From the NCBI GenBank assembly GCA_023954715.1, contig JAGSHD010000006.1, forward strand, positions 132,515 to 196,514: DNA of 64,000 bases. The letters are read 5' to 3'. The position numbers and the translations under genes are program-made. Positions 22,299 to 63,262 of this stretch are shown piece by piece. Source of the DNA: Candidatus Cloacimonadota bacterium. Its GTDB lineage: Bacteria > Muiribacteriota > UBA6191. The notes beneath the pieces were generated by a model, which saw nothing but the letters and a program-made list of their open reading frames with translations, ran no database searches and was not told the origin of the DNA. The stretch's first letter is position 1, and every line of letters starts with the position of its first letter.

Positions 22299-23489
22299 TT
22301 AATAGTACGTTTTAACGATATCTACATCACTATAATAATATTGCAAGATCTGCTTAAAGCTCTTTTTTTGTTTAGCCAGGCCCTTAGCACCCCATTGACA
22401 AAGGCCAACCCCATGCCCAAAGCCTTGTCCTTTCAAAGATAATACTCTTGAGTTAGATGGCTTACTAAATCTAGACAAAATATCCATAATAGCTGATTCA
22501 TCTGGGTTAGTAATCTTAACAGAACTGCTCTCTTGTTGAAAAGCCATAGTACTTCTCATAGTAGAAGGACCCATTAACTTTCTCAATTTAGCTCCAGATA
22601 AAGAGATTTTACCTGACGAATGATTTACAATAAGAGTTTTTAATCTTCCATCTTGTGAGTTTTTCACCTGTAAATTATCTATATTTTTTAGCTTTTTACC
22701 GTCAAGTCGGAGTAGATTTTTTAGTTTTTCATAGGGGATATCTAACTCCCACTTGTAGTTTTTATAGGCATTACACCATTTACATGACTTAGACTTTAAA
22801 AACTCCACTTTTTTACCTAACCAATGTCTAGAGTCTAACGTAGACCCTCCACAAGCTGAATGGTAATACGTTGAGATGAGCTCTTTTTTGTAAGTGATTA
22901 CCAATCCTCTAGTATTATCCACTACCTTAATCGCTAGTGGGTGTTCACTGGATACACCAGCATAAACCTGAGATCGAACATCCGCAGTTAACCCAAATCC
23001 ATAAGCATCTCGAAATTTATCAATATTTTTCATAGCGTAGGTCCGAGCTACAACTGCTTGTGCTTTTAGGGCTTCAATCGGAGAAGTGATTAGCATCTCG
23101 GCCTTTATAACTGAATATAAATAAGATTCAATGTCCACTTTGTTCACAATAGTCAATTTTCCGAATTTATCTTCAAAAATCTCAATTGTACCTCTATACG
23201 GTTTACCATTTACTACGATATTTTGTCGTTTGAAAGGCTTGATGTATATCCTGTGATAATCTACCTTCTTTAAAAAACCAAAGCCTCGTTGCGTTAACCT
23301 TATTTTTATGGGTGTAGCATTCCATCGAGTAAATATTTTCTTCTTATTTGCATCTAAGTTAAAAACTTGAAAACCATATTTTGCACCGATGCTTACTTTT
23401 TTTTGACCTTGTAAAATACCAACGTCAAGCATTGGATTTATGGCAAAACTAAAAGAACAAAGTAAAAACTGTAGAACAAACCACTTCAA
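22299..23489 (-). CDS. SpoIID/LytB-domain protein (amidase enhancer family)
   Basis: SPIEALKAQAVVARTYA signature. Signal peptide. Confidence 0.8.
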   Translation of the reverse strand: MKWFVLQFLLCSFSFAINPMLDVGILQGQKKVSIGAKYGFQVFNLDANKKKIFTRWNATPIKIRLTQRGFGFLKKVDYHRIYIKPFKRQNIVVNGKPYRGTIEIFEDKFGKLTIVNKVDIESYLYSVIKAEMLITSPIEALKAQAVVARTYAMKNIDKFRDAYGFGLTADVRSQVYAGVSSEHPLAIKVVDNTRGLVITYKKELISTYYHSACGGSTLDSRHWLGKKVEFLKSKSCKWCNAYKNYKWELDIPYEKLKNLLRLDGKKLKNIDNLQVKNSQDGRLKTLIVNHSSGKISLSGAKLRKLMGPSTMRSTMAFQQESSSVKITNPDESAIMDILSRFSKPSNSRVLSLKGQGFGHGVGLCQWGAKGLAKQKKSFKQILQYYYSDVDIVKTYY

Positions 23490-24784
23490 GATAGAAGCTC
23501 CTTAATATCTTTAAAGGTTACTAAAACAATTAGAGATAAAACACACAGTACTCCAAAAAGGTTTACATATCCTTCGATAATATCATCAAAGGCATCTTCT
23601 TGCTTACCCATTACATTTCCAAATTTATTGATACAATCCTTAACAACAATGATCATAATTCGGCCGCCATCCAAACCAGGAATCGGAACTAAATTAAAGA
23701 GACCAATGGAAATACTAATTTTGGCCACTAAAAATAGAAAGTCTAGTAAACCACGCTCAACACTTTGAGACACAACATTTGCAATGGCCACAGGCCCACC
23801 AATATTTTCAGGAGCTTTGAAGTTTCTGATCATATTAACAAACATGTTGGATAGCTCTCCAGCAAATTGTGTAGACCAGTTTATAGTTGACTTAAATGAA
23901 CGTTTTACCGAATCATTGAATGGATACACTATTAATTTGCCATCTAAAAAGAATGGACGAATTTGAATTCCAATCGTTCCTTGTTTACTTGGCACGACAA
24001 CTAAAACTTTCTTTTCTACATCTTGAGAGATAGACACTTTTATCTCAGTTGGGTTCAATTTTTCAAGATGCTTTAAAGCTACTTCTTTTGTATCATACAC
24101 CACTGATTTTTTGTCTTTTATTGTTTCTATCTTTATAAAACTTTTATCTACATATAGCTTGTCTAAATAATTTAAAAGACCAGCATGATCATCAAAACTT
24201 TTATAATTGGTTCGTCTTTGAACTTCTACTTCTACATCTTTTGTTGCAAAGCTTGAAATTAAAAATCGTCCTTGTTCAAAGTCTTCAATTTTCTTTTTAT
24301 TAATGCTAAGTAAAACATCATTTTCTTGAAAACCAGCAGTTGCCGCTGGAGCATCCTTAAGAACATTTACCACTTGAAGTGTAGTTGCCGGAAGACCGTG
24401 CCAATGATGGATATAAGCTAAAATGGCAAATGTACCCACTAGATTCATGGCTGGACCCGCTAGTAAAATTGCTATTTTTTGAAATATATTTTTTCTTTGG
24501 AAACTTCTATTGCCTGGGTCGGGTTTGTCATCATCCGGGTCGAGCCCATCTTCTTGGGCTAACATTACAAAGCCACCAATAGGCAAAGCACGAATAGAGT
24601 ACTCGGTCTCGCCAACTGTTTTAGCTATTAGTTTAGTTGAACCCATACCGATAGCAAAAGCGTCTACTCTCACATCACACCATTTAGCCACAACAAAATG
24701 CCCCAACTCATGAATGAAAGCAACTAATCCAATAACTAAACTGAACCAAAAAAGCTTGTATGCCAATGTAAGTAAAAATTCCAT
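23486..24784 (-). CDS. rseP: RIP zinc metalloprotease RseP (site-2 protease), active-site intact
   Basis: HELGHF, a PDZ domain, and NLVPIPGLDGG third-ligand motif. Confidence 0.9.
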   Translation of the reverse strand: MEFLLTLAYKLFWFSLVIGLVAFIHELGHFVVAKWCDVRVDAFAIGMGSTKLIAKTVGETEYSIRALPIGGFVMLAQEDGLDPDDDKPDPGNRSFQRKNIFQKIAILLAGPAMNLVGTFAILAYIHHWHGLPATTLQVVNVLKDAPAATAGFQENDVLLSINKKKIEDFEQGRFLISSFATKDVEVEVQRRTNYKSFDDHAGLLNYLDKLYVDKSFIKIETIKDKKSVVYDTKEVALKHLEKLNPTEIKVSISQDVEKKVLVVVPSKQGTIGIQIRPFFLDGKLIVYPFNDSVKRSFKSTINWSTQFAGELSNMFVNMIRNFKAPENIGGPVAIANVVSQSVERGLLDFLFLVAKISISIGLFNLVPIPGLDGGRIMIIVVKDCINKFGNVMGKQEDAFDDIIEGYVNLFGVLCVLSLIVLVTFKDIKELLS

Positions 24785-25019
24785 ATAATTCCGTTCGTGG
24801 TTTGATTTGTGCTAAATCTAAGCCCAATTTTATTGATGCTAAATAACTTTCTGAGCGAGGGTAAAATTTAACAATCTAAAAGTCTATAGTCTATATTACA
24901 TCGTTAAAATCAGTATCTTTAATAACAATAATACCTAAATCCACTGTAAAGAAACATGGAAGATTTAAAATAAGCCGCTCTGCTAGCTTTAAACGTTGAT
25001 TAGAATCACTAATTAAGAA

Positions 25020-26294
25020 TTACAATTGGGCGATGACCAACATGTTCTGAAAGATCATTAATAAAATCAAAAATACAAAAGCAATCAAATAAAACCAATC
25101 AAGCCATATTTCTGACTCCAAGCTTATGGGCTCCTCTTTGTAGTTAAAAAGTAGTGCCAACTTATTGATAAACATTCTGAGAAACATAACAAAAACTTTG
25201 CCGCCAGCTAGTTTAGGGATCGGAAAAAAGCTCAACCATCCAATGGTTAGAGAAACCATTGCAAAAAGTCGAAAAAAGTCAAAAGCAGTCATTTCTGAAA
25301 ACTCTTCAATAAACTGTTTTAACTCCCACGGAACATTAACCGGCAGTTCACGCTTCTTTAAAAAACTATGTATCATTGAAAATGCTTGAGTTAAAAACTC
25401 TTTGCTCAAAATATGAGTAAAATCGAAGGCTGTTTTAAAGGATTTTGCTAAACCTAGCTCTAGAGATTTTTCATTTAATGAATATGGTTTAATACCTATA
25501 CCGACTTTTCCTTCGTTGGTAGACAAGACATCAATATTTAAAATTTTAGAACTCTGAGAAAAATGAACTTCGATATTATTTGGATTCATGGAGCGCAAGT
25601 GTCGAATGGCTGGCTCTTTAGCATAAAACATTAGATAACTTTCAACACCTTTTTGAAATATTTTAATATAACTCTTGTGCTGATAAGTTTTAGTTAAGTA
25701 AGTTTTTGCTTTTTCATAATTGTCAAAAACTAAGTAGTCGCCTTTTCTTTCTATAGTAAAACTAACTTTGGTTTGAACTAATTTAGATATAGACTGACGT
25801 CCTTCATCAAAACGTTTTATATCCTCGTTATTGACCTTAAGGATAATATCTCCACGTTGAAAACCACTTTTGTGCGCTGGCATTCCAGGAATTGTATTGG
25901 TTACTTGCATCGTGCTTGGTGTATCTCCAAACATATAAAACGTAAATCCAAGTACCACAAAAGTAAAGAATATGGAAGAAATAGGCCCAGCACAGATTAG
26001 GATCAATTTCTTTAAGGGGGAAATCTCTGAGTTAACTACCTGAGGATCATTTGAGCATTTAGGTGAAAACTCTAAACTTCCACCTACAGGAAAAGAACAG
26101 ATAACAAAAAGTACTTCGCCAAAACTTTTGCTTAAAAGAATCGAACTACCCACACCTATTTTTATCTTAGTGAGTTTTATATTTAAAAACTTTGAAACTA
26201 AATATTTACCTAGGGCAAAAAATAAGGCTACTCCATCAACAAGTATAATAAACCAAAATATCTTTTTAAGAAAAAGTAATACTAAATCCACCAC
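25020..26294 (-). CDS. RseP paralog lacking all catalytic residues (pseudo-protease), PDZ retained
   Basis: Same architecture as rseP, but HELGH is replaced by FALGK and LDGG by LAGG. Confidence 0.8.
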   Translation of the reverse strand: MVDLVLLFLKKIFWFIILVDGVALFFALGKYLVSKFLNIKLTKIKIGVGSSILLSKSFGEVLFVICSFPVGGSLEFSPKCSNDPQVVNSEISPLKKLILICAGPISSIFFTFVVLGFTFYMFGDTPSTMQVTNTIPGMPAHKSGFQRGDIILKVNNEDIKRFDEGRQSISKLVQTKVSFTIERKGDYLVFDNYEKAKTYLTKTYQHKSYIKIFQKGVESYLMFYAKEPAIRHLRSMNPNNIEVHFSQSSKILNIDVLSTNEGKVGIGIKPYSLNEKSLELGLAKSFKTAFDFTHILSKEFLTQAFSMIHSFLKKRELPVNVPWELKQFIEEFSEMTAFDFFRLFAMVSLTIGWLSFFPIPKLAGGKVFVMFLRMFINKLALLFNYKEEPISLESEIWLDWFYLIAFVFLILLMIFQNMLVIAQL

Positions 26295-26303
26295 GCCCCA
26301 ATT

Positions 26304-27110
26304 TTAAAATATTAATAACAAGTATAAGGCACATAAAGCACCAGCTGTTACAGAATCAAATCGATCCAACACGCCCCCATGACCCGGAATAATCCACCCA
26401 GAGTCTTTAACGCTTAGACATCTTTTGAAACACGATTCTAACAGATCGCCTATCTGTCCCGCAATACCAATAATAAATAAACATAACAAGAAATAGTCTT
26501 TGAAAATAAATCCAAAATTTTGATGAACAGTATATAACACTCCCATCATAACTAAAATTCCAATGATAGACCCTTCCCAAGTTTTCTTTGGACTCAAATA
26601 TTGACTAAACTTATGCTTGCCAAATGCTCTTCCTCCAAAGTAGGCGAAAGTGTCTTGTAACCACATAATACAAAACAATAACAAAATTAAACTCAAGGAC
26701 GATTTTACATTTAACAGGAGTACAATCATTGGGGAAAAAAAGAAAACAACGTAGGAGAACATCAAAAACCCACGACCAAAGTCTTCAAAAAATTCATCTT
26801 TATTTTGTTCAGTATAATTAAAGATAGCCAAAATCAAAAACAGAACTGGGGATAAAATCAGCACATCTAAATCATAAATCTTCTTCATGGATTCAAATTT
26901 TTGTAACAAGATCAAGAGACTTGCTAAATGGATGCACATACAAAAAATATATACTCTACCTAGTACCTTAAATTTAGTCATTGAATATGCTTCTTGGTGC
27001 GCGAAGGCTGTTACTAGTAGCCAAAAAGCTCCAAAATATAGTGCCCCAGCCTTTAGTGATAATAGAGTCAGGGCCACCACTAAAAATCCACCAATTGCTC
27101 TAATAATCAT
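26304..27110 (-). CDS. cdsA: Phosphatidate cytidylyltransferase
   Basis: C-terminal SGWIIPGHGGVLDRFDS signature. Confidence 0.9.
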   Translation of the reverse strand: MIIRAIGGFLVVALTLLSLKAGALYFGAFWLLVTAFAHQEAYSMTKFKVLGRVYIFCMCIHLASLLILLQKFESMKKIYDLDVLILSPVLFLILAIFNYTEQNKDEFFEDFGRGFLMFSYVVFFFSPMIVLLLNVKSSLSLILLLFCIMWLQDTFAYFGGRAFGKHKFSQYLSPKKTWEGSIIGILVMMGVLYTVHQNFGFIFKDYFLLCLFIIGIAGQIGDLLESCFKRCLSVKDSGWIIPGHGGVLDRFDSVTAGALCALYLLLIF

Positions 27111-27883
27111 AATCCACCAAATTTTCTATGGCGGTTTTGAAACTCTAAAATGGATTCAAATAGATGAATTTCACGAAAATCTGGCCAATGGACATCGGTG
27201 AAGTAAAACTCAGAATAGGCGTTTTCCCACAGCATAAAGTTAGATAGTCGATTTTCACCACTTGTTCTAATCATTAGTTCTGGCTCTGGCATAAACCCTG
27301 TATACAACTTTTCGGTAATTAGCTCTTCTGTCACCGAGTTCACGTCCAAAGTACCAGACTGTACTTCAGTAGCAATTTCTTTAGTAACTCTTGCAATATC
27401 TGCTCTGCCTGAGTAATTCAAAGCTAAGTTCATACAGATTTTTTTGTTATCTTTGGTACGTTCACTCGCTTGAGCAAATTCTTGCTGAATTTTTGCACTC
27501 ATCTTGGTTAAATCACCGATGACGTTGATTCGAACACCTTGAGCACTCAATTCATCAATGTACTTATTTAAGGAAGATGAAAATAGCCCCATTAGCATGG
27601 ATACTTCAGACTCTGTTCTTTTCCAGTTTTCTGTAGAAAAAGCATAAAATGTTACGTAATCTACAGGTATTTTACCGCATAACTCTACTATAGCATGTAT
27701 AGAGTCTACCCCTTTTTTATGCCCAAAAGTTCGCGGTTTTCCTTGTGCTTTCGCCCATCGACCGTTGCCATCCATAATGATAGCAAGATGTTTAGGACAG
27801 TTCTCCCAATCAATTTGAGAAAACACCTTATCTTCTGCTTCATTCAATTCAACGTCTAGTCTGATTTGTTCTTCTATTGACAT
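27107..27883 (-). CDS. uppS: Undecaprenyl diphosphate synthase
   Basis: HLAIIMDGNGRWA motif. Confidence 0.93.
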   Translation of the reverse strand: MSIEEQIRLDVELNEAEDKVFSQIDWENCPKHLAIIMDGNGRWAKAQGKPRTFGHKKGVDSIHAIVELCGKIPVDYVTFYAFSTENWKRTESEVSMLMGLFSSSLNKYIDELSAQGVRINVIGDLTKMSAKIQQEFAQASERTKDNKKICMNLALNYSGRADIARVTKEIATEVQSGTLDVNSVTEELITEKLYTGFMPEPELMIRTSGENRLSNFMLWENAYSEFYFTDVHWPDFREIHLFESILEFQNRHRKFGGL

Positions 27884-35840: not shown

Positions 35841-37490
35841 TCAATCAACAAATGAGATAGCATGAAATTTTCCCCAATTTCCTCTACTATCTTGAGCATG
35901 TACAAAGAGCCTATAGTTTCGGAATCCAGGACGAAGTAATATTCTAAACTGCTCGAGTCTTTCATCAAATTTTCCATCTAATGCAAGAACCTTTATACCT
36001 CGTCCATCAGATGATGTTGAATCCAAAAAGTACTCCACTCTTTTAATGATTGAAGTTTCATCTTCAGCTGTTAGATTCACTACCGTGTTAGCACCTTTTA
36101 CTTTGGTCACTATAAAGCTCCCTATTACTTTAGGGCCTCTATAATCGACTCTGTTTTTAGAGTAGTTTTTAATGAATGGAAAATCACCTGTCAAACTCTT
36201 AGGAGTAAATCCTAGTTTCGAGTCTTGTTTAAAAAGTATTCTAAATGTACCACTTTCTTTTATCGCTTCTAGATTACTTCTTGTGGTGGTGATTTTGTTA
36301 AATTTGACTACAATTTGCAGTTTATTTTTAAGCTCCATATATCTCAGTATTTCAAAATGAATACTTTGATGAGATACTTCTCTAAACTCTTGCATTAAAT
36401 CTTCAACTATTAATCTACTTACATTTTTAATAGGACGAAGCACATTTGATAATCTAAATGCATTCTTTCGTTTAAATGACTCTGATAGTTCACTCAACCA
36501 GTTTTCAATGAAGTCTTTGTTTCCTCGCTCACTATAGCTAAAATCAAGATTATTATGTTTTACATCATAAAATTTATCAAAATCTCTCAATCTAAATTGA
36601 ATAGAATATTGTCCTTCTTTTGGAAACCTTTTTACTAAAAAACCTTCTTTATACACTACATCAAAAAAGTTATTTCCTTCATCTAGTGACATTTGTAATA
36701 TTTGATGAGGAAGTCGGTTTTCGATAGTTCCTTCAAATCTCAATTTACCCATGATTAAATCAGCAGAGCCAAAAGTTGGATTATCTCCCATTTCTTCTAC
36801 AGTTAAACCATTTATTGTAAAGTCTCGCAAGTGAACTGTTTCACTTTCATAGCTTTCTGAAAAATCTCGTAGATAAACTGGAATAGGCCATGAACTTTCT
36901 AATCTATACCAAGAAAAGAGTCTTCGAGACTGAGCTGCATCGATGGATAACTTTCTTGAAATCCTATCATTTTCTACAAAGGCTGACTCTCCAGCTTCTA
37001 GAATAATTTGTAAGTCTTGAAATCGTAAATTTAACTTCCCGTCTAAACAGAAGACTTCTAAAAAACCTCGTTGCTCATCAACATGAATCAAAAAATCTCC
37101 ATTGGATGACTCAATGGTACCCATTGGTGTCATAATTTCAAACTCTGTTGGCTTCGGTCGATTTTCATGAAGTAAGTTAAAAAAATATTGACCTTTTAAC
37201 AATTGTAGGCCAATAGTATTTTTACGCTTTAATGATACTCCCTTAAAGACCGAGTGCTCTGTTATTTTAACCTGATCTCCCGTTTTATATTTTAAAAGAG
37301 CAAAAGCATTATCTTCAACTTTTACAAAGCTATTCGTATAAAAGCCTCGATCGTTGGAGATCAACTTATTTTCAGGACCTGTTACAAAAACTCGACCTTT
37401 TTTAATGGCGAATTCTGCTATGTGTTCTTGGGTGTAACTTAATGTACTAATTATTAAAAATATAGGAAATAATATAGGTAGAGATTTCAT
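35841..37490 (-). CDS. Secreted hypothetical protein with FecR-like N-terminal region
   Basis: Signal peptide. N-terminal segment resembles a FecR domain. 1-nt gap to the upstream MBL gene. Confidence 0.5.
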   Translation of the reverse strand: MKSLPILFPIFLIISTLSYTQEHIAEFAIKKGRVFVTGPENKLISNDRGFYTNSFVKVEDNAFALLKYKTGDQVKITEHSVFKGVSLKRKNTIGLQLLKGQYFFNLLHENRPKPTEFEIMTPMGTIESSNGDFLIHVDEQRGFLEVFCLDGKLNLRFQDLQIILEAGESAFVENDRISRKLSIDAAQSRRLFSWYRLESSWPIPVYLRDFSESYESETVHLRDFTINGLTVEEMGDNPTFGSADLIMGKLRFEGTIENRLPHQILQMSLDEGNNFFDVVYKEGFLVKRFPKEGQYSIQFRLRDFDKFYDVKHNNLDFSYSERGNKDFIENWLSELSESFKRKNAFRLSNVLRPIKNVSRLIVEDLMQEFREVSHQSIHFEILRYMELKNKLQIVVKFNKITTTRSNLEAIKESGTFRILFKQDSKLGFTPKSLTGDFPFIKNYSKNRVDYRGPKVIGSFIVTKVKGANTVVNLTAEDETSIIKRVEYFLDSTSSDGRGIKVLALDGKFDERLEQFRILLRPGFRNYRLFVHAQDSRGNWGKFHAISFVD

Positions 37491-38467: not shown

Positions 38468-41400
38468 CTACTTAATAATAGCAAGCTTCACTATTTTCTT
38501 ATTTGTATTTCCATCCGAATCTTCAATCTGAATTTTCATGAAATAAATACCATTAGCTAAGGAGTCTAAATTAAATTGGTCTAATGGTAAATAGCTATCT
38601 TTGGATATTTGCCCCATATTTTGACTATGTATCCTAGAGGAAGCCGAATCATACAAAGATAAGTGTACTTTTGTCGCTGTTCTATTTAACTTTAGTTTAA
38701 GTTGAGCGTTACTTGATCGTATGGGATTTGGTACAACAATGCTTTCTTGAAAAGCAATAGGCCCTACTGGCTTAACTAAAAGGCTTAATGACTTAGAATT
38801 ACCTAGGTAATCCATAGCATTAATTTCAACATTATTCATCTGACCTTGCTGTAGTTTGGACTTACTAACTCTGATAAACGAATCTTCATCATAAGTTACA
38901 GAATGAAGTGAGTTATTAATTTTAACCTTTAATGCATCAAGGTTAACCCCTACACCTAAATCTTCTACTTTTATAAGTAGATCACTTTCTAAAGCTTCTA
39001 AGTCAATACTTTGATCAATCTCCAAGATCGGGTTTTTACTGTCTTCTATCAAAAGTAGCTTAGATGGATTAGATGACGATAGATATATTTTATCATCTTG
39101 CATAATCTGTGTTTGATAAGTCAAACCATCAACTGAAGACTCCATCACAGCGTATTTTCCCACATTGCCTTTTACATAGTCATTTAAATTAATCTCAAAG
39201 TTACTATCCTTTGCTAGACTCGTCTTAGGAAACATATTAAAGAGTGGGAGATTGTCTTGATTAACTTTTTGATTTGTAGTCCAAGGAAATACGTAAAATG
39301 TGGGTTCTATTCTTGAGACCGCCTGAGAGATCTCACTTACTTTTGATTGAGAAAAAGCTAATCTCTTGACTTGAAAAGGAATCACTCTAGTTATCGAGTT
39401 ACCTTGAACATCTACTCCGGTAATTTCGATTTGTAAAGAGCCCGACAGATTTAAGTTTAAAAGATATCCTCCATGAAAAGCTGAGCTTGTTAACCTCGTG
39501 AGATTAACTATCTGTATTTCATCTGCTGTAGATTGAGTGCCTGGATCTTTCAACTGTCTAATCTGCATATAAGGCAATTGAGATACGTCTTCATCGGTAC
39601 CCCCCTTTTGATGTAAGCCTTTAATTACAAATATAATCTCATTATCATTGGAAGGATGCGAAAAAATTCTAAATTCAAAATATGGGCCTAGGTCTACCTC
39701 GAAGTTATGTGTCCGAGTTAGGCCAACATTATTTGATAGATCATAATAGTTTTCAACTTTAATATAACCTAATCCATTGTAATCAACATCCCCGTCTTCA
39801 GGTAGAATTTTAAAGTTACCTACATATTTGTTACCCTCATAGCTCAATTGATTTAATGTAATCGGAGGGTAAACTTCTATAACTTCTTGATTAAAAGCAT
39901 TTACAATTGTCTTAGATGCTGGATAAAAACGTACAAGAGGAGTTTTGCTAGTATCCATATTTTCAGTAAAAGTAATATGAAACCTTAAATCTCCGTTTAG
40001 TATTGTCCCTTGTAAATTATCTGGTAAAATTGTTCGGTCAAACCCATAGTTTTCTACATCAGGGATACTTCTATCCATTATAATTGTCCTACCATTGGAC
40101 GTTTCACTCCGTTGATTAATTCCATCAATTGCAATTACTCTCCATGACGCCACACCTTCTTGTAAAAAACCCAAATTTACATCGGCTTGAATGGTCTCTC
40201 TATCAAAAGGAAACTCTGTTGAATTATTATCTTTATCTGTTATCACCAAAACATAACTATTTGCAGTAGGCTCAGTTTTCCACTCGAAACGCTGAATACC
40301 TCCAGAAAGTCGATAACCATCAATTGGAGAAACTAATTGAGGTGGACTAAGTAGATCAGAGTTTAAAGACAAGTCCTTAATAACATATCTTTCATTTCCA
40401 GCTTTATCGATAGCTCTAAAGGTTAAACGTACATCACCTTTAAAGTTATAAAATTTCTGTGAAAATTGAAACTCAAACTTTTGACTCTTTGGATAATTGA
40501 CTAGCTTTTTGTTTAAAGGGACTTCCGTCCAAGCCAATACCTCAGGATAGGTGGCTGAGCCAATATTATTTACTGACTCTACTCGTACTTCTACTTTTTG
40601 AACTCCTAGCCCATTTGTACCACCAAAAAGCGGGTATGCAGAGTTTATGACTTGCTCATCTTGCGCAAAACCAGAAAACTCCAGTACCCCAGAGGTTATC
40701 CATATATCATTATTTAAAGCAATGCTTAAATTTGGTGTTATTGTGTCATACATAAAATACGATGTACTTATTTCACCAACATTTAGGCTCAAGTCTACAG
40801 GTAGAATCTCCATCTTATAAATACCATCCATGGAACCATCGGTCTGTAAGCCAATAGGATCTAAAGATACAGGATCTACGTTTAATTCAAAAAGTAACCT
40901 ACCAACTAAAGGTCCCCCAAATACTGGTGCATTGCCACTTGCATCTGCCTTAAATTTGATCCGAGAAGAAGTTATCAATCCAGCTGGTACCGAACCAAAT
41001 GGATGCTCTAAGCGTAAAACTACAGTAGATGTGGGTAAAGTGTTTTGTGAATCTGTTTGAGCACGTAAACCAGACCCTAAGTAGCCATTGCTAGACCTTT
41101 GATCAAATATATATGAAGATAAAATATTTAAGGGGCCTTTTACTACACTTCTGTTAGAGGGTATTCGTGAGTCTCTTTGTTCAAATCCATCTGGAATTGG
41201 AAAATTGATTCCATCCATTACAGATGGTACTTTAGTATCATAAGTATATTGATATACTTTTGGGTTTGATACATTGCCAGCAATATCTGAAATAGTGGCG
41301 TTGGCTACCAATATCCCATCATCTGTTCCGTCTTTTAGTAGGTCTTCTTTAAAATGAAATTTAACACTTGAACTGCTCACAGACTGGGGCTTAGATACTT

Positions 41401-43963
41401 TATACTCTTGAGGACTTCTTAGATAGTTAAAAACTTTTATTTCAGACTTTAACAAATCAATTTCTGAAGTCAAAGTCTCCTCAACACTAATTGATAGAAG
41501 TGGGAGCGAGTTTTCACGTGGTAAGGTATCTGCATTGTAATAAGCATGGTCTTGTGGAGTAAAAGTGACAATCAAGTTAGGTGATAAAGACTCTGTATCT
41601 AGTTGAAGCACTATAGACTCAACAAACGAGTTACCTACCTTATCTCTCATTGTAATTTGAAACAGATAAGTACCATCAGTAACCATAGCAGAGGGACCAG
41701 ATGAATTAGGATAAAAGTCTATAGTTCTTGGATCAAAAACCTCTAATCGACCTTCTACTACATGAGTTGGATCTGTCTCTAAAGGGCCAATACACGATAC
41801 AGTTGAAGTCATAGGGTCAGCACCAGACACCACAAGATTTGAACTATCATCACTCATAACCAAACGTAAAGGAGATGGAGCTGCGTTTATAACCGACCCA
41901 TCAGAAGGAGTAACGAATTGTCGAAACAACTTGGGAGCCAAGGAGTCTACTATAAAAGCTTGAGGTTCACGAAAAGAAGGTACTAAAGTATTACCAGCAG
42001 AGTCTCGGCCTCCCGTGACCAAAATCTCTACTGCCCCATCATTTTTACCATCATTTGATGATTGAACTACATATTGGTATTCAAACTCTAGACCATTATC
42101 AAAAGTATTAGACAATCCAACCTGCTGAGCATAACCTGCTTGTTGTGTAACCCAAACAAAAGGTGCCTCTTCTAGTTTTTCAGAAAGTAGAACTTTTATA
42201 TTTACTGTAGTCCCTGGTAAAAAAAAGATTGGATCTCCACTTTCAATAACAGCATTATTAATTTTGATATTTTTTACAGTTGGAGCTGTTCTATCAATCT
42301 TTATAACTAATTGAGTTTTAGACCCTGGTCCTGAGTTTTGAGCTTTATCTTTAGATATAATATCAACAGTATACTCACCGTCTTGCACATCTCCAATACT
42401 TATAAGGCCTCTAAACTCATCTTCAAGTGCACCAATATTTGCAGCGGGTCTAACATTAAAGTTGGTAGGAGAATGAACAAAGACTCCCCCTTCTGGTTCT
42501 AAACCATCACCATCTATTAAAATTGTATTTGAATTAGTAGCAAAAAATGTATCTTGAGTTAACAAATTTGGAGCACTCGGAGCAACTCGATCAAAAATTA
42601 CAGACCCTAAGTTATGTGGAGGAGAAAACTCTTCTAATGTGGCATCATCCGGTCTTGGAGAAATAACAATTGCTTGCACCTCTAAGGATGCATTTTGGTT
42701 TGGGTTTAAAGCATCAAAAGGAATAGAGATATCCTTCTGGAAGGAAACTCCAGCTGCTACGTTGGTTAGCTGCTCTTCTACTAAAAATTGACTCCCTGAC
42801 ACAATGGATGATACTCGAAACATGATCCTGTGAGTATCAACCTCATTACACACAGCACCCAAAACAGATATAGATTGATTCTGTCCAATGAAAGCCCCAT
42901 CAAATGGTTGCATACTTAACAAGTTGAAACATGGCTCTAATGTCAATCGTCGAACTACTTGGGTTTCAGCTGTTGCTTGATTTCCAGCCGCATCAAAAGC
43001 GATAACCGTATACGTTGTTTCTGTTGTGCCTGCTATAGATACTGTTGGATCTCTTTCTAACTCAACTCCTGCTATTGTTACTCTACCACTCAAGTCTGTC
43101 ATTCTAATTAATTTGTTAGTATTTCGAGAGTTTGTGACGTGAACTTGAGCAAAAGGCTCATTCGTCTCTACAATTAATCCAAACACCGCCAGCTCGGTTG
43201 GTCCTGCGGGATCAGCTGTACCCCCAGGTAATGTCGTACTTACGCCGGTAATGACAGGAGCAGTTGTATCATGAAACATTCTAAGAAAATCACTTTCTTT
43301 TTGAATACCAAGATTGCTAGCCCCTTGATCTAATACCTGTGCCTTGAGTTGAACTAAATTTAATTGATTTGCTACAAGAGGTATATTGGTAATTACACCA
43401 TTACCTGTTGAAAAAACCGTATCTGACTTTACTTCTGTTCCGTTGATAAAAGTCTTTATTTCATAACTACTAGCGTTTCCATTTAAAGTATAATGAGCTT
43501 CAATCTCTGGTTGAGTAGTATATAGACTAATAGCCCCACCGGACTCCTGTAGATGGTTTAGAGTCAAATTAGTTACGTTATATTCAAGATCTCTTACAAT
43601 ATTATTTATCGTTGTTGTTACTGGAGTAACAGCAACAGAAAAACCAACAACCGTTAGAGCAAAAGAGTTGCTTCCTTCGTTTAGCGATAACTTAACAAAG
43701 AAGTCCTCTTCTCCCGTATGGCTAAATTGCTCTCTCGAATTTATTATTTGATTGGGAAAGCCTTGACGTATAGCTCGTACACTATAGACTCCAGGATCAG
43801 CTTTCAATCGTAACTTTAAAGCTATTGACGAACCAGTTCTACTATTTAAATTGGATTGACTTAAAGAAGGTAACACTTCAATAATATTGAATTCTTGAAT
43901 TGCCCCATACGCAAATGTATTAAAAAGTATATATAAAAAAACGATTAGCCGTTTAGCTGTCAT
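38468..43963 (-). CDS. Giant secreted surface protein (1831 aa) with T9SS-type C-terminal sorting-domain-like tail
   Basis: Signal peptide. Long Ig/FN-like repetitive body. C-terminus PNP...LSLYDSASSRI...LANGIYFMKIQ...KKIVKLAIIK. Confidence 0.7.
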   Translation of the reverse strand: MTAKRLIVFLYILFNTFAYGAIQEFNIIEVLPSLSQSNLNSRTGSSIALKLRLKADPGVYSVRAIRQGFPNQIINSREQFSHTGEEDFFVKLSLNEGSNSFALTVVGFSVAVTPVTTTINNIVRDLEYNVTNLTLNHLQESGGAISLYTTQPEIEAHYTLNGNASSYEIKTFINGTEVKSDTVFSTGNGVITNIPLVANQLNLVQLKAQVLDQGASNLGIQKESDFLRMFHDTTAPVITGVSTTLPGGTADPAGPTELAVFGLIVETNEPFAQVHVTNSRNTNKLIRMTDLSGRVTIAGVELERDPTVSIAGTTETTYTVIAFDAAGNQATAETQVVRRLTLEPCFNLLSMQPFDGAFIGQNQSISVLGAVCNEVDTHRIMFRVSSIVSGSQFLVEEQLTNVAAGVSFQKDISIPFDALNPNQNASLEVQAIVISPRPDDATLEEFSPPHNLGSVIFDRVAPSAPNLLTQDTFFATNSNTILIDGDGLEPEGGVFVHSPTNFNVRPAANIGALEDEFRGLISIGDVQDGEYTVDIISKDKAQNSGPGSKTQLVIKIDRTAPTVKNIKINNAVIESGDPIFFLPGTTVNIKVLLSEKLEEAPFVWVTQQAGYAQQVGLSNTFDNGLEFEYQYVVQSSNDGKNDGAVEILVTGGRDSAGNTLVPSFREPQAFIVDSLAPKLFRQFVTPSDGSVINAAPSPLRLVMSDDSSNLVVSGADPMTSTVSCIGPLETDPTHVVEGRLEVFDPRTIDFYPNSSGPSAMVTDGTYLFQITMRDKVGNSFVESIVLQLDTESLSPNLIVTFTPQDHAYYNADTLPRENSLPLLSISVEETLTSEIDLLKSEIKVFNYLRSPQEYKVSKPQSVSSSSVKFHFKEDLLKDGTDDGILVANATISDIAGNVSNPKVYQYTYDTKVPSVMDGINFPIPDGFEQRDSRIPSNRSVVKGPLNILSSYIFDQRSSNGYLGSGLRAQTDSQNTLPTSTVVLRLEHPFGSVPAGLITSSRIKFKADASGNAPVFGGPLVGRLLFELNVDPVSLDPIGLQTDGSMDGIYKMEILPVDLSLNVGEISTSYFMYDTITPNLSIALNNDIWITSGVLEFSGFAQDEQVINSAYPLFGGTNGLGVQKVEVRVESVNNIGSATYPEVLAWTEVPLNKKLVNYPKSQKFEFQFSQKFYNFKGDVRLTFRAIDKAGNERYVIKDLSLNSDLLSPPQLVSPIDGYRLSGGIQRFEWKTEPTANSYVLVITDKDNNSTEFPFDRETIQADVNLGFLQEGVASWRVIAIDGINQRSETSNGRTIIMDRSIPDVENYGFDRTILPDNLQGTILNGDLRFHITFTENMDTSKTPLVRFYPASKTIVNAFNQEVIEVYPPITLNQLSYEGNKYVGNFKILPEDGDVDYNGLGYIKVENYYDLSNNVGLTRTHNFEVDLGPYFEFRIFSHPSNDNEIIFVIKGLHQKGGTDEDVSQLPYMQIRQLKDPGTQSTADEIQIVNLTRLTSSAFHGGYLLNLNLSGSLQIEITGVDVQGNSITRVIPFQVKRLAFSQSKVSEISQAVSRIEPTFYVFPWTTNQKVNQDNLPLFNMFPKTSLAKDSNFEINLNDYVKGNVGKYAVMESSVDGLTYQTQIMQDDKIYLSSSNPSKLLLIEDSKNPILEIDQSIDLEALESDLLIKVEDLGVGVNLDALKVKINNSLHSVTYDEDSFIRVSKSKLQQGQMNNVEINAMDYLGNSKSLSLLVKPVGPIAFQESIVVPNPIRSSNAQLKLKLNRTATKVHLSLYDSASSRIHSQNMGQISKDSYLPLDQFNLDSLANGIYFMKIQIEDSDGNTNKKIVKLAIIK

Positions 43964-44207: not shown

Positions 44208-47200
44208 TTAATCGTCGGATTCTGTTGATACATTCAACTCTTTTAAGAACTCTGTACCAAGATTATCTTCAAGAGAAATTTCGAAATTTCCTTCAAGTTC
44301 TTCTCGGTCTTCAGAACCATTAATTAAGCTCTCTTTATCATCAAAATCATATTTTAGGTATCTATCGAAACCAGTACCAGCTGGAATCAAGTTACCCATA
44401 ATAATGTTTTCTTTTAATCCACTTAAGTTATCAATCTTAGATTGGATTGCAGCGTTTGTAAGAACCTTAGTTGTTTCTTGGAACGAAGCGGCAGATAGAA
44501 AACTATCTGTAGTCAACGATGCCTTAGAAATACCTTGGATAATACTTACAGCAGTTGCAGGCTTAAATTTGTCTTTGATCAAAGCATCATTCGTTTTCTT
44601 AAATTCAAAAGCATTGATAATATTACCAGTGTTGTATGGAGAGTCTCCAGAACCAGTAATTCTTACCTTAGAAACCATTCGTCGAAGAATCGTTTCAACG
44701 TGCTTATCATTAATTGTTACACCCTGAGATGTATAAACCGTTTGTACTTCATTCAATAAGTATTTTTGAGCATCAAAGATACCTAAAGACTCACTTAATG
44801 ATTTAACATCAACATCGCCATCAGTTAACTTATCACCAATACTTACATATTCACCATCAGTTACAATAAGATCACCAAGTGCTCCTGTTACAACCTGCTT
44901 TTCAGAATTCTTTTCATTTTCAATAACAATATTGTTACCTCTAATTCTTAGAACTCCACTTCGAGATGAGATCAAAGAGTAAACTTTTGGATTTCTAACT
45001 TCGAATAGAGAGTTAATTCTTGGAAGACCCTGAACAATATCAGTAGTTTTCTTACCAGCACCACTCCATTTAGCTAAAATATCACCTGGCTTAATTTCTG
45101 CATTTTCTTTTACAAAGATTTCAGCACCATCTGGAATGGAGTGAACCTCTCCAGCTTGTACTTGAACGCTTTCGATAACTGATCTTACTTTTCCTGTTTT
45201 AGTTAAAGCATGAATCAATTTAACAGTACCATCAGACTCAGTTACCATACGAGCAATTTGATCACCCTTCTTAACTTCACCTTCTGTTACTAATACTTCG
45301 ATATCATCAGTTACAGTATATTTCTTTTCGTTTACTTCTTCTCTTGTAAAACAAACACCATCTTCTAAAGCCTCAAAGTTTGTATACTCTAAGAATTCAG
45401 TAATAGCATCACCTTTTTCTACTTTTTGACCATTCTTAACACAAAGTGGTAATCCAGTAGATAAGAAATAATCTTTTCCTGAATATACTAAGATAGATCG
45501 AACCATTTCTTCGCCAGTTCGCTTATTGTATTCAGTAATAAAGTTTACTTTACCTTCAATATCAGCAACGATTGGAGCAAAAGAGTTAATTAACTTAGCT
45601 CCCACTTCGACTTCGTCACCTTCAGCTACTAATAATTCAGCGTTTCCAGGAGTGATATACTCTCTAGATGTTTCATCATTAGTAATGATAATACGCTTAG
45701 ACTCAGATAATGCAGATACTTCTACTTTACCAACAGACTCACGCTTTTCATATAGATCTTGAGCGATTTCACTTGTTACTTCTTCACCGGCTTTGTATAA
45801 AACAGCACCTTCATGAGAGGCATCTTCCATGAAAACAGCTCCAACTAAAGATTCTGGCTGAAGATCTTCTTCAAGTAGTACAGATGATTTTGCATAATGA
45901 TCTTTAATTGCTACTGTTCCTTCTACTTCTGTGATGAAAGGAATCGTACCAGTTAATTTCTGACCAACTTCAACATCATCACCAGACTGAACAACAACAT
46001 TGTCAAATCTCAATTGGCAACTTTCAGGAATTACATATTCACGCTCATCCTTTATCAATACTCTACGTCTATCAACAGTTTTATTAGAAGCAGATCGGTA
46101 ACTAATCAACTTAACAATACCGTTACCTTCAGCTAAAAATCGAACTTGTTTATTATCTTCATCTAATTCAACATCCATTGAACCAGTCATATAGTATTCA
46201 CTTGATTTCTTGTGAATTACAGATAGAGTTTTTCTACCAGTATATTTAACTTCACCAGAGAATTCTGCAAAGATACTACATAGTTCATCGTTGGCTTTCA
46301 CCTGATCTCCAGATTTAACCTTAAGAACTACGCCTAAATCACCTGGTAAACCAATTGGCTTTGTAGCGGATGATTTTAGACCCTTTGGAGATTCATAGAT
46401 ATTATCTTCTAAATCATCAGAAGCGATAAAGATCATTCCGTTTTCTGAAATAACTCTTTGGTTTTTAATCTTAATATCTCTAAATTCTGCTGTACCATGG
46501 CTTGATGCAATAACAATAGATCTTTCTTTTTCAAGTAAGTATAAGTTATCACCAGCAGCTACAGTCTCACCATCTTCAACAGCAAGTGCAGATCCTTTAG
46601 GAATCTTATAAGAACCTAAAAGTTTTGTAGAATCGGCACTGTCATATACTTCGATCTCACCATCATGAACAACTACACCATCTTTACGAACGATGCTAGC
46701 AAATTTCACAACTCCACTGTAAGAAGTAATATATGTACTTGGATTGTACTCAACAAGAACTTGACCTGCAGTAACGAATTCGCCTTCTTCAACTCTTAAG
46801 ACCCCACCTTGTGGCATAACAAACTCATACTTCTTACCTTTTTTATCAGTAATTTTAAGTACTCCACCTGTTACAATCTTTTTAACGTTGTCATCAAATT
46901 CATCGTTTTCAGAAGCATCGTTTCCAGTATCAATCTGAAATCTAGCTCTTTCAACTTTATACTCATAAGTTAAGTCATCTAAAGAGATATGACCAGTAAC
47001 TTTTGCTTTTACCACAATTCTAGCTGCTTCAGCAATACCACCAGTGTGGAAGGTTCTCATTGTTAACTGAGTACCAGGCTCACCAATAGATTGTGCTGCA
47101 ATAACACCAACAGCAGTACCAATAGATACATTTTGACCTGTTGATAAATCAATTGCGTAACATTTTCTACAAACTCCCCATTCTACTTTACAAGTAATTG

Positions 47201-50162
47201 GAGATCGTACCCATACTTGTGGGTATACACGAACATCATCAATATCATGTGCTTTAAATTGCTCAATCAACTGTGGAGTGATCAATTGATCCGGACCACA
47301 GATAATAGAATTATCAACTAAGTTAACAACACATTCATCAGTTAACATTCCAGGCTTAATCTTATCAACTCTTAAAGAAGTTGTAGTTAAAGAAATTTGC
47401 TTAGCAATTTCTTTAGTAATTGTGATTCCACCTTTTAAAATAGTTTTATTTGTTTCAGGATGAACTACATCTTTTAACAATGTTCTAGCAAAGATACGAT
47501 CTTCAATTGGAATAACGATCTCATCCACTAAAATGTTGTTAGTTGTTCTTTTTCCACGAAGAGGAGACATTCTAAGACCATGTTCTGTACCACAATCTTC
47601 TGTAGTAACAATAACATCTTGAGCAACGTCAACTAATCTTCTTGTTAAATATCCTGAATCGGCTGTACGAAGAGCAGTATCCACAAGACCTTTTCTAGCT
47701 CCATAAGTAGAGATAAAATAATCGGTCATTGTAAGACCCTCTTTAAAGGATCTCTTGATCGGAACGTGCATAATATCCCCGTGCGGGTTAGACATCAATC
47801 CACGCATACCAGCCAACTGCTTCATCTGCTGAACATTACCTCTAGCCCCAGAAATTGCCATGGTATAGATCGGATTGAATTCTCCGTTTTCCCATTTTTG
47901 CTTATAGTGAGCCATCATATCATCTGTTACTTCTTCAGTAGCATTGATCCAAAGGTCAACTTCCGCTTTCTTACGCTCTTCAAGGTTAATCTCTTTATTA
48001 GAAAAACGATCTGCAATTTTCCTTGCTCGTTCTTCTGCAACTGCCATGATGTGATCTTTTCTAGGCGGCTTTTCTAGATCAGACAATGCAATTGTTAATC
48101 CAGAGAATGTTGCATATCTAAATCCAACATCTTTAATAGCATCCAAGAGTAGTACTGTTTCATTTGTACCACAAGTTTCATAACATAACTCGATAATATT
48201 CATTAGTTTCTTTTTATCGAAACGATAATTATGATATCCAATTTCATTTGGAATAATATCATTGAATAATACTCTACCAATTGTTGTCACATAATATTTG
48301 TTGAATTCATCTGTACCACGTTCTGCTTCTAGAGGGTTCTTAACAAGAACCGAATCATGCATTTCGTGATTTCCGTTTTCAAAGCTTAAAAGAGCTTCTT
48401 TTGCTGAAGAATATTTTTGTAAATCTAAAATAGTAACTTCAGGGATTTTTGCCTTTTTAATTACTTTGAACTCATCCAATTGGATAATACCAGATGCACT
48501 TACAATCTTAGTACCTGCTGCATCGCAGATATCATCATAAGCTACAGCAACTCCGCTTCCAAATTTAATCATTTCTTCTAGTGAAGGTACTTTTAATGAC
48601 TTCTTGCTACCAACTGGCATAGTCTTTGTTTTTTCCCACTTAACTTGGTTAGTCAGGTAAAAAGCACCAATAGACATATCTTGTGATGGAGCAGCTACTG
48701 CACGACCAGAAGAAGCAGCTAAAATGTTGTAAGAAGACATCATTAATATTCGAGCTTCTACTTGTGCCTCAAGTAAAAGTGGAATATGTACAGCCATCTG
48801 ATCCCCATCGAAATCGGCATTAAATGCACCACAAACTAATGGGTGTAACTGTATAGCTTTTCCTTGAACCAAGATTGGTTCGAAAGCTTGAATTCCTAAT
48901 CTATGAAGTGTAGGAGCACGGTTCAGCATAATTGGGTGATCTCTTACGATCTCCTCTAATACTTTCCATACGTTTTCATCTTCTTTTTCAATCAATTTTT
49001 TAGCTGATTTGATATTGTGTGCAAAAGCATACTCTACCAATTTATTCATGATAAAAGGCTTAAATAATTCAAGAGCCATCTTTTGTGGTAAACCACACTG
49101 ATGCAATCTTAAATCTGGTCCAACCACAATAACTGATCGACCAGAATAATCCACACGCTTACCAAGTAAGTTTTGTCTGAATCGTCCTTGCTTACCTTTT
49201 AACATATCATTTAGAGATTTTAGTGGTCTGTTTCCAGAACCAGTCACTAAACGACCTCTTCTACCATTATCAATCAAAGCATTTACTGCTTCTTGAAGCA
49301 TACGCTTCTCGTTTTTGATAATAATATCTGGAGCATTCAATTTCATTAATCGCTTTAAACGATTGTTTCTGTTGATTACTCTTCTATATAAATCATTTAA
49401 ATCAGAAGTAGCAAATCTACCACCATCTAGTTGAACCATAGGACGTAAATCCGGTGGAATAACTGGTAATACATCAATAATCATCCACTCTGGTCTATTT
49501 TTAGAGTTCATGAATACTTCAGCTACTTGTAGTCTATTTACAATATTTTGTTTTTTTGAACCTAAATCTTCACGTAATTTACGCTTTAAGTCCTCAACCA
49601 ATTTTGAAAGATCTAACTCTCTAAGTAGTTCTGCAACTGCAACCCCACCTGTACCAGCTCGATACATATCTCCATATCGTTCTTGATACTGAGCATGCTC
49701 GTCTTCACTTAAGATTTGCTTCTTAAGAAGAGGTAAACTACCTGGATCAATTACAATATAAGAGTTAAAGTACAATACTTTTTCAAAATCTCTTGCAGTA
49801 ATATCTAACAATAGAGCGATATAATTTGGTGTACCTTTTGAGTACCAGATATGAGCAACAGGAGCTACTAACTCAATGTGTCCCATTCTTTCACGACGCA
49901 CATTAGATCGAGTTACCTCAACACCACATCGTTCACAAACCAAACCCTTATATCGGATACTTTTATATTTCCCACAGAAACATTCCCAATCTTTGGTAGG
50001 TCCAAAGATACGCTCACAAAACAATCCATCTCTTTCTGGACGGTGAGTTCTGTAGTTGATTGTTTCTGGCTTTTTTACAACACCCTTTGACCATTGTCTA
50101 ACAGTCTCAGGAGAAGCAATACTAATTTGAATGGAAGATAATTCCTTAATTCCTTTTAACAT
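44208..50162 (-). CDS. rpoC: DNA-directed RNA polymerase subunit beta' with ~665-aa SBHM-repeat insertion in the trigger loop
   Basis: [12 protein letters not shown]. Trigger-loop halves [19 protein letters not shown] at ~aa 1040 and [14 protein letters not shown] at ~aa 1710. Repeated V.xGd.L SBHM motifs between them. Confidence 0.97.
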
Positions 50163-62101: not shown

Positions 62102-63262
62102 ATGAAAAAAATTGTGATATTAGGAGCTACTGGTTCTATTGGTGATAGTACCATCGAATTGGTTCGAAACTTCCCTTCGCAATATCAAATTGTAGGAATC
62201 ACTTCAAACACATCGGTAGACAAGCTATTTAAATTACAAAAAGAGTTTAATGTCCCTTATCTACATATCATGGACCAAGATGCCTATACATCTATTAAAA
62301 ATTACTCTTCAAGTGCCAGAGTTGAGAGCTCTATGGAGTCCCTGCTAGACTTTATAGCATCCGCTGATTATGATGTAATCGTTGCTGCTATGGTTGGCAA
62401 TGTTGGTTTGTTACCTGTCATGGAGGCAATCAAGGCTGATAAAATCGTTGCTCTCGCCAACAAAGAGACCCTAGTGAGCGGAGGACACCTAGTTCAGGAC
62501 CTACTCAAACAACATCCCAAATCCAGTTTACTACCAGTAGACTCAGAACACAGTGCTATTTATCAATGTCTTCGGGGAGAGTCTCACAAAGAGCTTAAAA
62601 ATATCTGGCTTACAGCTAGTGGTGGTAGCTTTCGTGAAATGTCATTAGAAGACATGAAAAACATCTCTGTTAAAGATGCACTCACTCACCCTAATTGGGA
62701 TATGGGTGCAAAAATCACTATTGATTCTTCAAGTATGATGAACAAAGGACTTGAAGTCATCGAAGCGAAATGGCTATTTGATTGTACTATGGATCAAATA
62801 CAGGTTGTTGTACATCCACAAAGTATCGTTCACTCAGCAGTGGAGTTTCAAGACAACTCCTTTATAGCTCAAATGGGCCATCCGGATATGACCGTACCGA
62901 TCTCATTTGCACTATCTTACCCCCAACGTCATTGCCTTAACCACTTGGAGGCTTTAGATTTAAGAACTTTAGGGTCCTTACAGTTTCATGCTCCTGACTT
63001 TGAGCGATTTCCTTGTCTTGGTCTTGCTTTTGAAGCTGGTCGCATTGGGCATAGCGCGCCAACAGTTCTCAACGCCTCTAATGAGATTGCAGTAAAACTA
63101 CTTCTTCAAGAGAAAATTCAATTTTTACAAATACCGCAGCTCATCAAAAATGCACTATCTAAGTTTGAAGTCATATCATTTCCAAACTTAGAGCAGATTT
63201 TAAAGATCGACCTTGAAACCCGTCACTATATACTAGATAACTATCAGGATATTTTATCATGA
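62102..63262 (+). CDS. dxr: 1-deoxy-D-xylulose 5-phosphate reductoisomerase
   Basis: ILGATGSIGDSTIELV N-terminus. Conserved Dxr blocks. Confidence 0.93.
   Translation: MKKIVILGATGSIGDSTIELVRNFPSQYQIVGITSNTSVDKLFKLQKEFNVPYLHIMDQDAYTSIKNYSSSARVESSMESLLDFIASADYDVIVAAMVGNVGLLPVMEAIKADKIVALANKETLVSGGHLVQDLLKQHPKSSLLPVDSEHSAIYQCLRGESHKELKNIWLTASGGSFREMSLEDMKNISVKDALTHPNWDMGAKITIDSSSMMNKGLEVIEAKWLFDCTMDQIQVVVHPQSIVHSAVEFQDNSFIAQMGHPDMTVPISFALSYPQRHCLNHLEALDLRTLGSLQFHAPDFERFPCLGLAFEAGRIGHSAPTVLNASNEIAVKLLLQEKIQFLQIPQLIKNALSKFEVISFPNLEQILKIDLETRHYILDNYQDILS

Follow-up and report, generated by a model that had tools for sequence, protein, structure and literature searches.

Introduction

The main unsolved problem in the study of site-2 proteases (S2Ps) is the selection and gating of their substrates. 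For the group I enzyme RseP of E. coli, elements of the C1N region, of the membrane-reentrant (MRE) beta-loop and of the start of the third transmembrane helix (TM3) were reported to contact the substrate (PMC7728848). A 2023 review of the bacterial enzymes states that all S2Ps contain the HExxH and the LDG motif, and inactive paralogs are not mentioned there (PMC10202637). In the Arabidopsis chloroplast, the S2P homolog EGY3 lacks HExxH; it was reported to have a non-proteolytic role and to stabilise other proteins (PMC10978774). A related principle is known from iRhoms and Derlins, catalytically dead rhomboid paralogs that have kept their fold, bind client proteins and regulate their fate (PMC3149277). 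Here we report on a stretch of 64,000 nucleotides (the window; contig JAGSHD010000006.1, positions 132,515 to 196,514, assembly GCA_023954715.1) in which a catalytically dead RseP paralog, D, is encoded directly upstream of an active RseP, A. The comparison of this pair across related genomes indicates that D is a pseudoprotease kept by selection, with the constraint shifted from the former catalytic core to the periplasmic PDZ module, and we propose that it modulates A.

Results and Discussion

Both genes are located on the minus strand of the window. A (23486-24784, 432 amino acids) is a canonical active RseP by its open reading frame (ORF), by Pfam and by the NCBIfam RseP equivalog model TIGR00054. 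It contains HELGH at residues 25-29 (nt 24698-24712, minus strand) and LDGG at residues 371-374 within FNLVPIPGLDGG (nt 23663-23674, minus strand), so that the third-ligand motif NxxPxPGLDGG reads NLVPIPGLDGG. Pfam detects Peptidase_M50 (3e-49) together with a PDZ domain, and 202.9 bits against TIGR00054, whose cutoff is 147.55 bits, class A as an RseP equivalog. D (25020-26294, 424 amino acids, GTG start; the NCBI gene model begins one codon later) is 28% identical to A in a full-length alignment (E 1e-65) that places the catalytic motifs in the same columns. At the HExxH site D reads FALGK (residues 26-30, nt 26205-26219, minus strand) and at the LDGG site LAGG (residues 362-365, nt 25200-25211, minus strand). 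Its TM3 motif is SFFPIPKLAGG, with the PxP element (P358 and P360) kept, and no HExxH is found anywhere in D. Pfam nevertheless assigns D to M50 (PF02163, 8.8e-17, 61.6 bits at a gathering score of 27.2) and to PDZ_6 (5e-9), and D matches positions 7-410 of the 421 positions of TIGR00054 with 95.7 bits, which is below the cutoff. According to these profiles D ranks as an RseP homolog but not as an equivalog. The current labels of D, which are “site-2 protease family protein”, “RseP” or “hypothetical”, overstate or miss its nature. Because D fails both catalytic motifs and the equivalog cutoff, we suggest that it should not be annotated as a protease.

The original prediction, made from the DNA letters of the window, had described a canonical RseP with HELGH, PDZ domain and LDGG, preceded in a uppS-cdsA-rseP neighbourhood by a copy with FALGK and LAGG at the motif positions. 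The data bear this out. The substitutions are read directly from the DNA and are confirmed by the end-to-end alignment with A, and the window order is indeed uppS-cdsA-D-A. That the motifs were simply misaligned, with a functional HExxH elsewhere in D, is rejected by the same full-length alignment.

Next to its own A, D is found again in many related loci. In total, 11 distinct lineages contain the tandem, each with an intact D of 380-433 codons directly upstream of an active A. The locus GC content ranges from 29 to 50%, and identities fall to 44% between A copies and to 21% between D copies. The host lineage is uncultured, mostly marine and known only from metagenomes; three of the source metagenome-assembled genomes are named Candidatus Cloacimonetes or Cloacimonadota, which are NCBI labels only. 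A word-indexed search with D returned four close orthologs with 62-100% identity, all of them with F[AGV][LI]GK and L[AS]GG, and the same type of search with a profile of nine D sequences gave no further members. Against the GTDB genomes, the single D protein had no match, and the alignment of the close D orthologs matched only in NORP72. The distant orthologs were found because the D profile was run in an exhaustive hidden Markov model (HMM) search through 1.84 billion representative proteins. This search furnished the full-length D proteins P0019, P0020, P0021, P0023, P0025 and P0027 plus the fragment P0026, and all of them lack HExxH and LDGG. About 140 other matches listed in the D-profile search are ordinary active RseP proteins, the single exception without HExxH being N-terminally truncated. 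Additional loci came from a metagenome scan seeded with an alignment of the A family. Wherever enough upstream sequence was available in these loci D precedes A, with one exception (L016, see below).

All contigs that encode D orthologs show the gene order rpsB-tsf-pyrH-frr-uppS-cdsA-D-A-spoIID-pilMNO(Q). On the minus strand of the window this order reads rpsB, tsf, pyrH, frr, uppS (27107-27883), cdsA (26304-27110), D, A, spoIID and pilMNO, where uppS and cdsA are named after the Pfam labels of the orthologous genes in the relatives, and D starts 9 nt past the cdsA stop. The active partner is strictly conserved: HELGH and NxxPxPGLDGG are invariant in all ten full-length A copies. The A of locus L019 shows HELGH as well; it ends after 119 amino acids at the contig end and is thus not among the ten. 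In a neighbour-joining tree of D, A and 12 outgroup RseP proteins (100 bootstraps), the D clade and the A clade are each recovered in 100/100 replicates and the joint D+A clade in 80/100, and the D and A subtrees share their branching order. These clades and their mirrored topologies indicate that a single ancient tandem duplication, placed at the base of the lineage, gave rise to D and A, which were co-inherited from then on.

What happened to the active site in the D copies? The position of Glu27 is occupied by Glu in none of the 11 sequences, the second His (His30) is Lys or Arg in all 11, and Asp363 is Ala, Val, Ile or Leu in all 11. The first His (His26) is found in 4/11 and is replaced by Phe, Ser, Pro or Tyr in the other 7/11. 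HExxH is absent from all 11 orthologs, and the GGP ahead of TM3 in A is gone from D. From the TM3 motif, both prolines (P358 and P360) are present in 11/11 and the Asn in 6/11. D has lost the zinc-binding and catalytic residues, and since all three ligand/catalytic positions are affected, we infer that the protein is inactive and does not bind the metal. The conserved Lys/Arg at the position of the second His may fill the vacant metal site. The original prediction had all catalytic positions substituted, which is correct for the copy in the window and incorrect for the four orthologs that keep the first His.

The overall architecture of D is predicted to be unchanged. An AlphaFold2 (AF2) model built from a 13-sequence alignment (predicted local distance difference test, pLDDT, 81.9) shows the secondary-structure layout of RseP: TM1, the MRE beta-loop, TM2, the PDZ domain with an insert, the PCT helices, TM3 and TM4. 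The best Foldseek matches of this model in the PDB are RasP (9a6w) and the RseP structures from Aquifex (9j82/9j83), Kangiella (7w6y/7w6z) and E. coli (7w6x), with E values from 1e-14 to 2e-18. By sequence, the D profile matches the RasP/RseP structures in the PDB with 6e-29 (7w6y) to 2e-22 (hmmsearch). Judged from the model, D retains the group I S2P (M50) fold. The periplasmic module of D (residues 123-275; 25470-25928, minus strand; defined by Pfam PDZ_6 and AF2) is a PDZ domain which is split by an alpha/beta insert of ~55 residues. In a model of the module alone (pLDDT 87.8), the core matches single PDZ domains of RseP. The insert (roughly residues 191-245 in D) is found in both D and A, the insert regions being 25515-25724 in D and about 23951-24220 in A (minus strand), and because it is common to both, it predates the duplication. 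It gave no Pfam match and no clear structural match. Ordinary RseP proteins do not have this insert.

We then compared the conservation of D and A region by region, as mean pairwise identity of 11 D and 10 A sequences in one alignment. In TM1, the helix of HExxH, the mean identity is 0.27 for D and 0.66 for A (D/A ratio 0.40). The membrane-reentrant beta-loop gives 0.27 for D and 0.82 for A (0.33), and the LDG region in TM3 gives 0.34 and 0.74 (0.46). The situation is different in the periplasm, where the PDZ domain shows 0.43 for D and 0.42 for A (1.04) and the insert after the PDZ core 0.39 and 0.31 (1.27). In A, the membrane core is hence the most conserved and the periplasmic part the least conserved region, while in D it is the opposite. 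D is relaxed in the catalytic core, and its periplasmic module is constrained as much as that of A or even more.

This shift is also visible at the level of single residues. At 12 positions D is conserved within the family and different from A. Eight of these are located in the periplasmic module (D124, R147, V154, E182, Y209, Y224, A225 and K269), three in the PCT region (L296, E324 and F328) and one in TM3 (L354). In the periplasmic module R147, Y224, A225 and K269 are invariant. Such D-specific conservation is the pattern expected for neofunctionalisation rather than for simple decay. The membrane-core positions that D and A have in common are mainly G29, G47, G49, P69, G71, P358, P360 and N377. 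Here G47 and G49 correspond to the GFG motif (GxG) of the C1N region, P69 and G71 to the PxG of the MRE beta-loop, and P358 and P360 mark the start of TM3. They fall into the three elements which are reported as substrate-contacting in E. coli RseP (see Introduction).

The substitution data point to selection on D as well. Between the window and its two nearest relatives, the proportion of synonymous differences (pS) is 0.73-0.81 and therefore saturated. The proportion of nonsynonymous differences (pN) is 0.11 and 0.23 for D and 0.06 and 0.15 for A; for cdsA and spoIID it is 0.10-0.23 and thus like that of D. This corresponds to pN/pS of ~0.13-0.31 for D before saturation correction. Pairs at an intermediate distance, suitable for an unsaturated ratio of the two substitution rates (dN/dS), were not found, as all pairs are either near-identical or saturated. 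In the tree D evolves ~1.5x faster than A, and the nine-sequence D alignment (A6) contains 21 invariant positions. To judge from its coding sequence, D is clearly under purifying selection, because an unconstrained frame of 424 codons would not remain open in 11 lineages this deep. We are highly confident that D is a selected pseudoprotease.

The view of the original prediction, that D is a conserved pseudo-protease and not a decaying gene, stands with these data: 11 lineages have an intact D, none of them with the catalytic Glu or Asp, and pN is low at saturated synonymous sites. D is neither absent nor frameshifted in these relatives, the pairing with A is conserved, and L016, a single contig with D deleted, is the sole exception. 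As regards the proposed dN/dS estimate, the pN values of 0.11-0.23 are low compared to the saturated pS of 0.73-0.81.

What does D do? As the best explanation of the data as a whole, to which we assign a probability of about 0.55, we propose that D is a pseudoprotease that modulates A. By binding, and not cutting, a periplasmic ligand or a processed membrane protein, D would modulate the RseP-dependent intramembrane proteolysis. In this mechanism, D would be made together with A and reside in the inner membrane as a non-cutting binder, with the Lys/Arg at the second-His position plausibly occupying the empty metal site. Ligands of the PDZ module and of the remnant of the substrate groove would be a periplasmic signal or a membrane protein already cleaved at site 1. 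D could then modulate substrate access to A by handing the substrate over, as an adaptor or gate and possibly as a D-A heteromer. Alternatively, D could hold substrates back as a decoy or stabiliser, like an iRhom or EGY3. For the claim that D acts on or with A, we see somewhat less than even odds.

A far more specific version of this idea is doubtful. In this version D would be the first intramembrane pseudoprotease of a prokaryote that is dedicated to regulation, acting as a heteromer with the adjacent RseP. The PDZ-plus-insert module would be the sensing and gating subunit that selects membrane proteins such as anti-sigma factors, giving a two-subunit version of the single-chain PDZ filter of E. 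coli RseP. The original prediction had likewise seen in D a regulatory or substrate-gating partner of RseP, for example in sigma-E-type signalling; such a role is hypothetical, and neither a sigma-E nor an RseA gene can be recognised in the vicinity of the D-A pair. FecR-type anti-sigma factors are known S2P substrates. A FecR-domain protein of 549 amino acids is encoded 10 kb from the pair (35841-37490, minus strand), and an ECF (extracytoplasmic function) sigma gene was not identified beside it. We regard this protein as a candidate substrate of A or ligand of D.

The spacing of the two genes bears on the question of joint synthesis. In the deeper branches, the gap between D and A is -8, +2, +23, +62, +74 or +102 nt. 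In locus L010, D overlaps A by 8 nt and cdsA by 4 nt, and in L011 D is 2 nt away from A. Such tight or overlapping frames suggest translational coupling, and it is plausible that D and A belong to the same operon. In the window the two genes are separated by a 235-nt spacer (24785-25019, minus strand), on whose coding strand no sigma-70-like promoter and no terminator was matched. Although the synonymous sites are saturated, a block of this spacer (at about 24896-24962) has been conserved between the window and its two nearest relatives. The block may serve A as an internal promoter or in the control of translation. Within it, TTCCAT (24956-24961) is the complement of the ATGGAA with which A starts (24779-24784), and RNAalifold predicts a weak pairing of the two (three sequences, -3.8 kcal/mol). 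We take this putative pairing as a weak lead only.

Several observations weigh against a function of D on A. The spacer of 162-262 nt in the clade of the window means that strict co-translation is not universal. The adjacency of D and A may be a mere legacy of the tandem duplication; it is weak evidence for a functional link because the whole block of ~12 genes is syntenic. The Gly and Pro residues that D has kept may have a structural role only. In the deepest branch (L010, 6001-7143, and L011, 6001-7149), D has 380-382 amino acids, ends past TM3 and lacks TM4. In L016 (contig Ga0163109_10076129, 2458 bp, region 369-605), ~1.2 kb of D are missing compared to L013 and A is intact. The order there is the 3' end of cdsA, ~107 nt, the last ~110 nt of D and the intact A, with ~76% nucleotide identity to the relatives. 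This means either a loss of D in this one lineage or a mis-assembly of the short contig; a genuine loss would make D accessory and not essential. Together with the D proteins without TM4, this contig argues that the role of D is dispensable or variable. Finally, as far as the sequence tells, D may act on A either positively or negatively.

Part of these points lead to the strongest competing explanation, namely that D, as a pseudoenzyme, has a function of its own that does not depend on A. It would be a membrane-anchored periplasmic PDZ scaffold or receptor in another envelope process, for example near the lipid-carrier, peptidoglycan or pilus functions of the surrounding genes, and would stand beside A only through the tandem duplication. 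The constraint that is concentrated in the periplasmic module at a relaxed membrane core, the invariant residues of D that A does not have, the missing TM4 in L010 and L011 and the block-wide synteny, by which the adjacency is not specific for the pair, are all in line with this explanation. Against it, D has kept the full S2P membrane scaffold with GxG, PxG and PxP over a very deep divergence, whereas a mere anchor needs far less, and the overlapping or abutting frames in the deep branches suggest that D and A are synthesised in a coupled manner. We consider an independent D unlikely, though it is the alternative that survives best.

A protease with different, unrecognised catalytic residues is a very improbable description of D. 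One may think of it in view of the first His kept in 4/11 copies and of the invariant basic residue at the position of the second His. However, around the former active site neither a nucleophile nor a metal ligand is conserved, Glu and Asp have given way to aliphatic residues in 11/11 copies, and the first His is Phe, Ser, Pro or Tyr in 7/11. Relative to A, TM1 and TM3 are among the least constrained regions of D (D/A 0.40 and 0.46).

A decaying pseudogene, chance ORF or annotation artefact, as one might suspect from the ~1.5x faster evolution of D and its deletion in L016, is hardly credible given ORFs of 380-433 codons that are intact in 11 lineages with saturated synonymous sites, pN/pS of ~0.13-0.31 before saturation correction, the 21 invariant positions of A6 and the confidently predicted RseP-like fold, and we reject the decay on the basis of these conservation data.

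The surroundings of the pair contain further unusual features. A gene of the SpoIID family (22299-23489, minus strand) overlaps the end of A by 4 nt and follows A in every related locus that extends past A. The coupling of A and spoIID is thus conserved, and the lineage is not known to sporulate. In many bacteria, dxr is located between uppS-cdsA and rseP. Here it is found at 62102-63262 (plus strand), ~35 kb from uppS-cdsA-rseP. The rpoC gene (44208-50162, minus strand) encodes 1984 amino acids compared to the usual ~1400. Its Rpb1 domain 5 is spread over residues 809-1877 with hybrid-barrel-like segments, pointing to a very large lineage-specific insertion. Directly downstream of rpoC, an ORF of 1831 amino acids (38468-43963, minus strand) has the bacterial Ig-like Big_13 repeat as its sole Pfam match; it probably encodes a giant surface protein, and its position is unusual. 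An Rfam search of the window gave tRNA only.

Conclusion

In summary, we describe a dead and an active RseP that are encoded in tandem. MEROPS lists “non-peptidase homologues” in many families, and M50 homologs that lack the motifs are for this reason not new in themselves. What appears to be new is an ancient, lineage-wide and syntenic pair of a dead and an active RseP in which the constraint has shifted to the PDZ module. In the full-text literature searched we found no report of a dead bacterial RseP. The statement of the original prediction that such a paired arrangement has not been described is thus valid for bacteria in this literature, with the restriction that an S2P pseudoprotease, EGY3, is known from plant chloroplasts (PMC10978774).

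At the D-A locus, nature has set up a separation-of-function experiment: each cell has two versions of one scaffold, one that is catalytic and one in which selection acts only on the parts for binding and filtering. Should D modulate A, the pseudoprotease principle of iRhom and EGY3 would be extended to bacterial regulated intramembrane proteolysis. Structural biology would in that case gain a naturally inactive RseP-type protein, which might trap substrates. If D acts alone, an intramembrane protease scaffold would have been recycled as a periplasmic receptor.

How does D compare to the known systems? With the group I S2Ps (MEROPS M50; E. coli RseP, B. subtilis RasP and Aquifex aeolicus RseP), D shares four TM helices, the membrane-reentrant beta-loop, the periplasmic PDZ domain between TM2 and TM3 and the PCT helices. 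It is encoded in their typical uppS-cdsA-rseP neighbourhood, where the adjacent A is a bona fide member of the group. Unlike these enzymes, D has neither HExxH nor the Asp of LDG and stays below the RseP equivalog cutoff. Both D and A contain a single PDZ domain with the lineage-specific insert of ~55 residues and not a PDZ tandem. A model suggested by the pairing is provided by the mixed FtsH/FtsHi complexes of chloroplasts, in which active and inactive membrane metalloprotease paralogs work together. FtsH proteins, however, are AAA+ hexamers and not intramembrane S2Ps, and a D-A hetero-oligomer is hypothetical. By analogy, the closest precedents for D are EGY3 and the iRhoms. EGY3 belongs to the EGY-type branch of the S2P family and not to the RseP-type group I. 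Like D, it is an S2P-family protein that has lost HExxH and has been retained; it is eukaryotic and has no active paralog in tandem, and no orthology is implied. The iRhoms and Derlins are eukaryotic as well and belong to the serine rhomboid class with an unrelated fold, so that the likeness to D is one of principle only.

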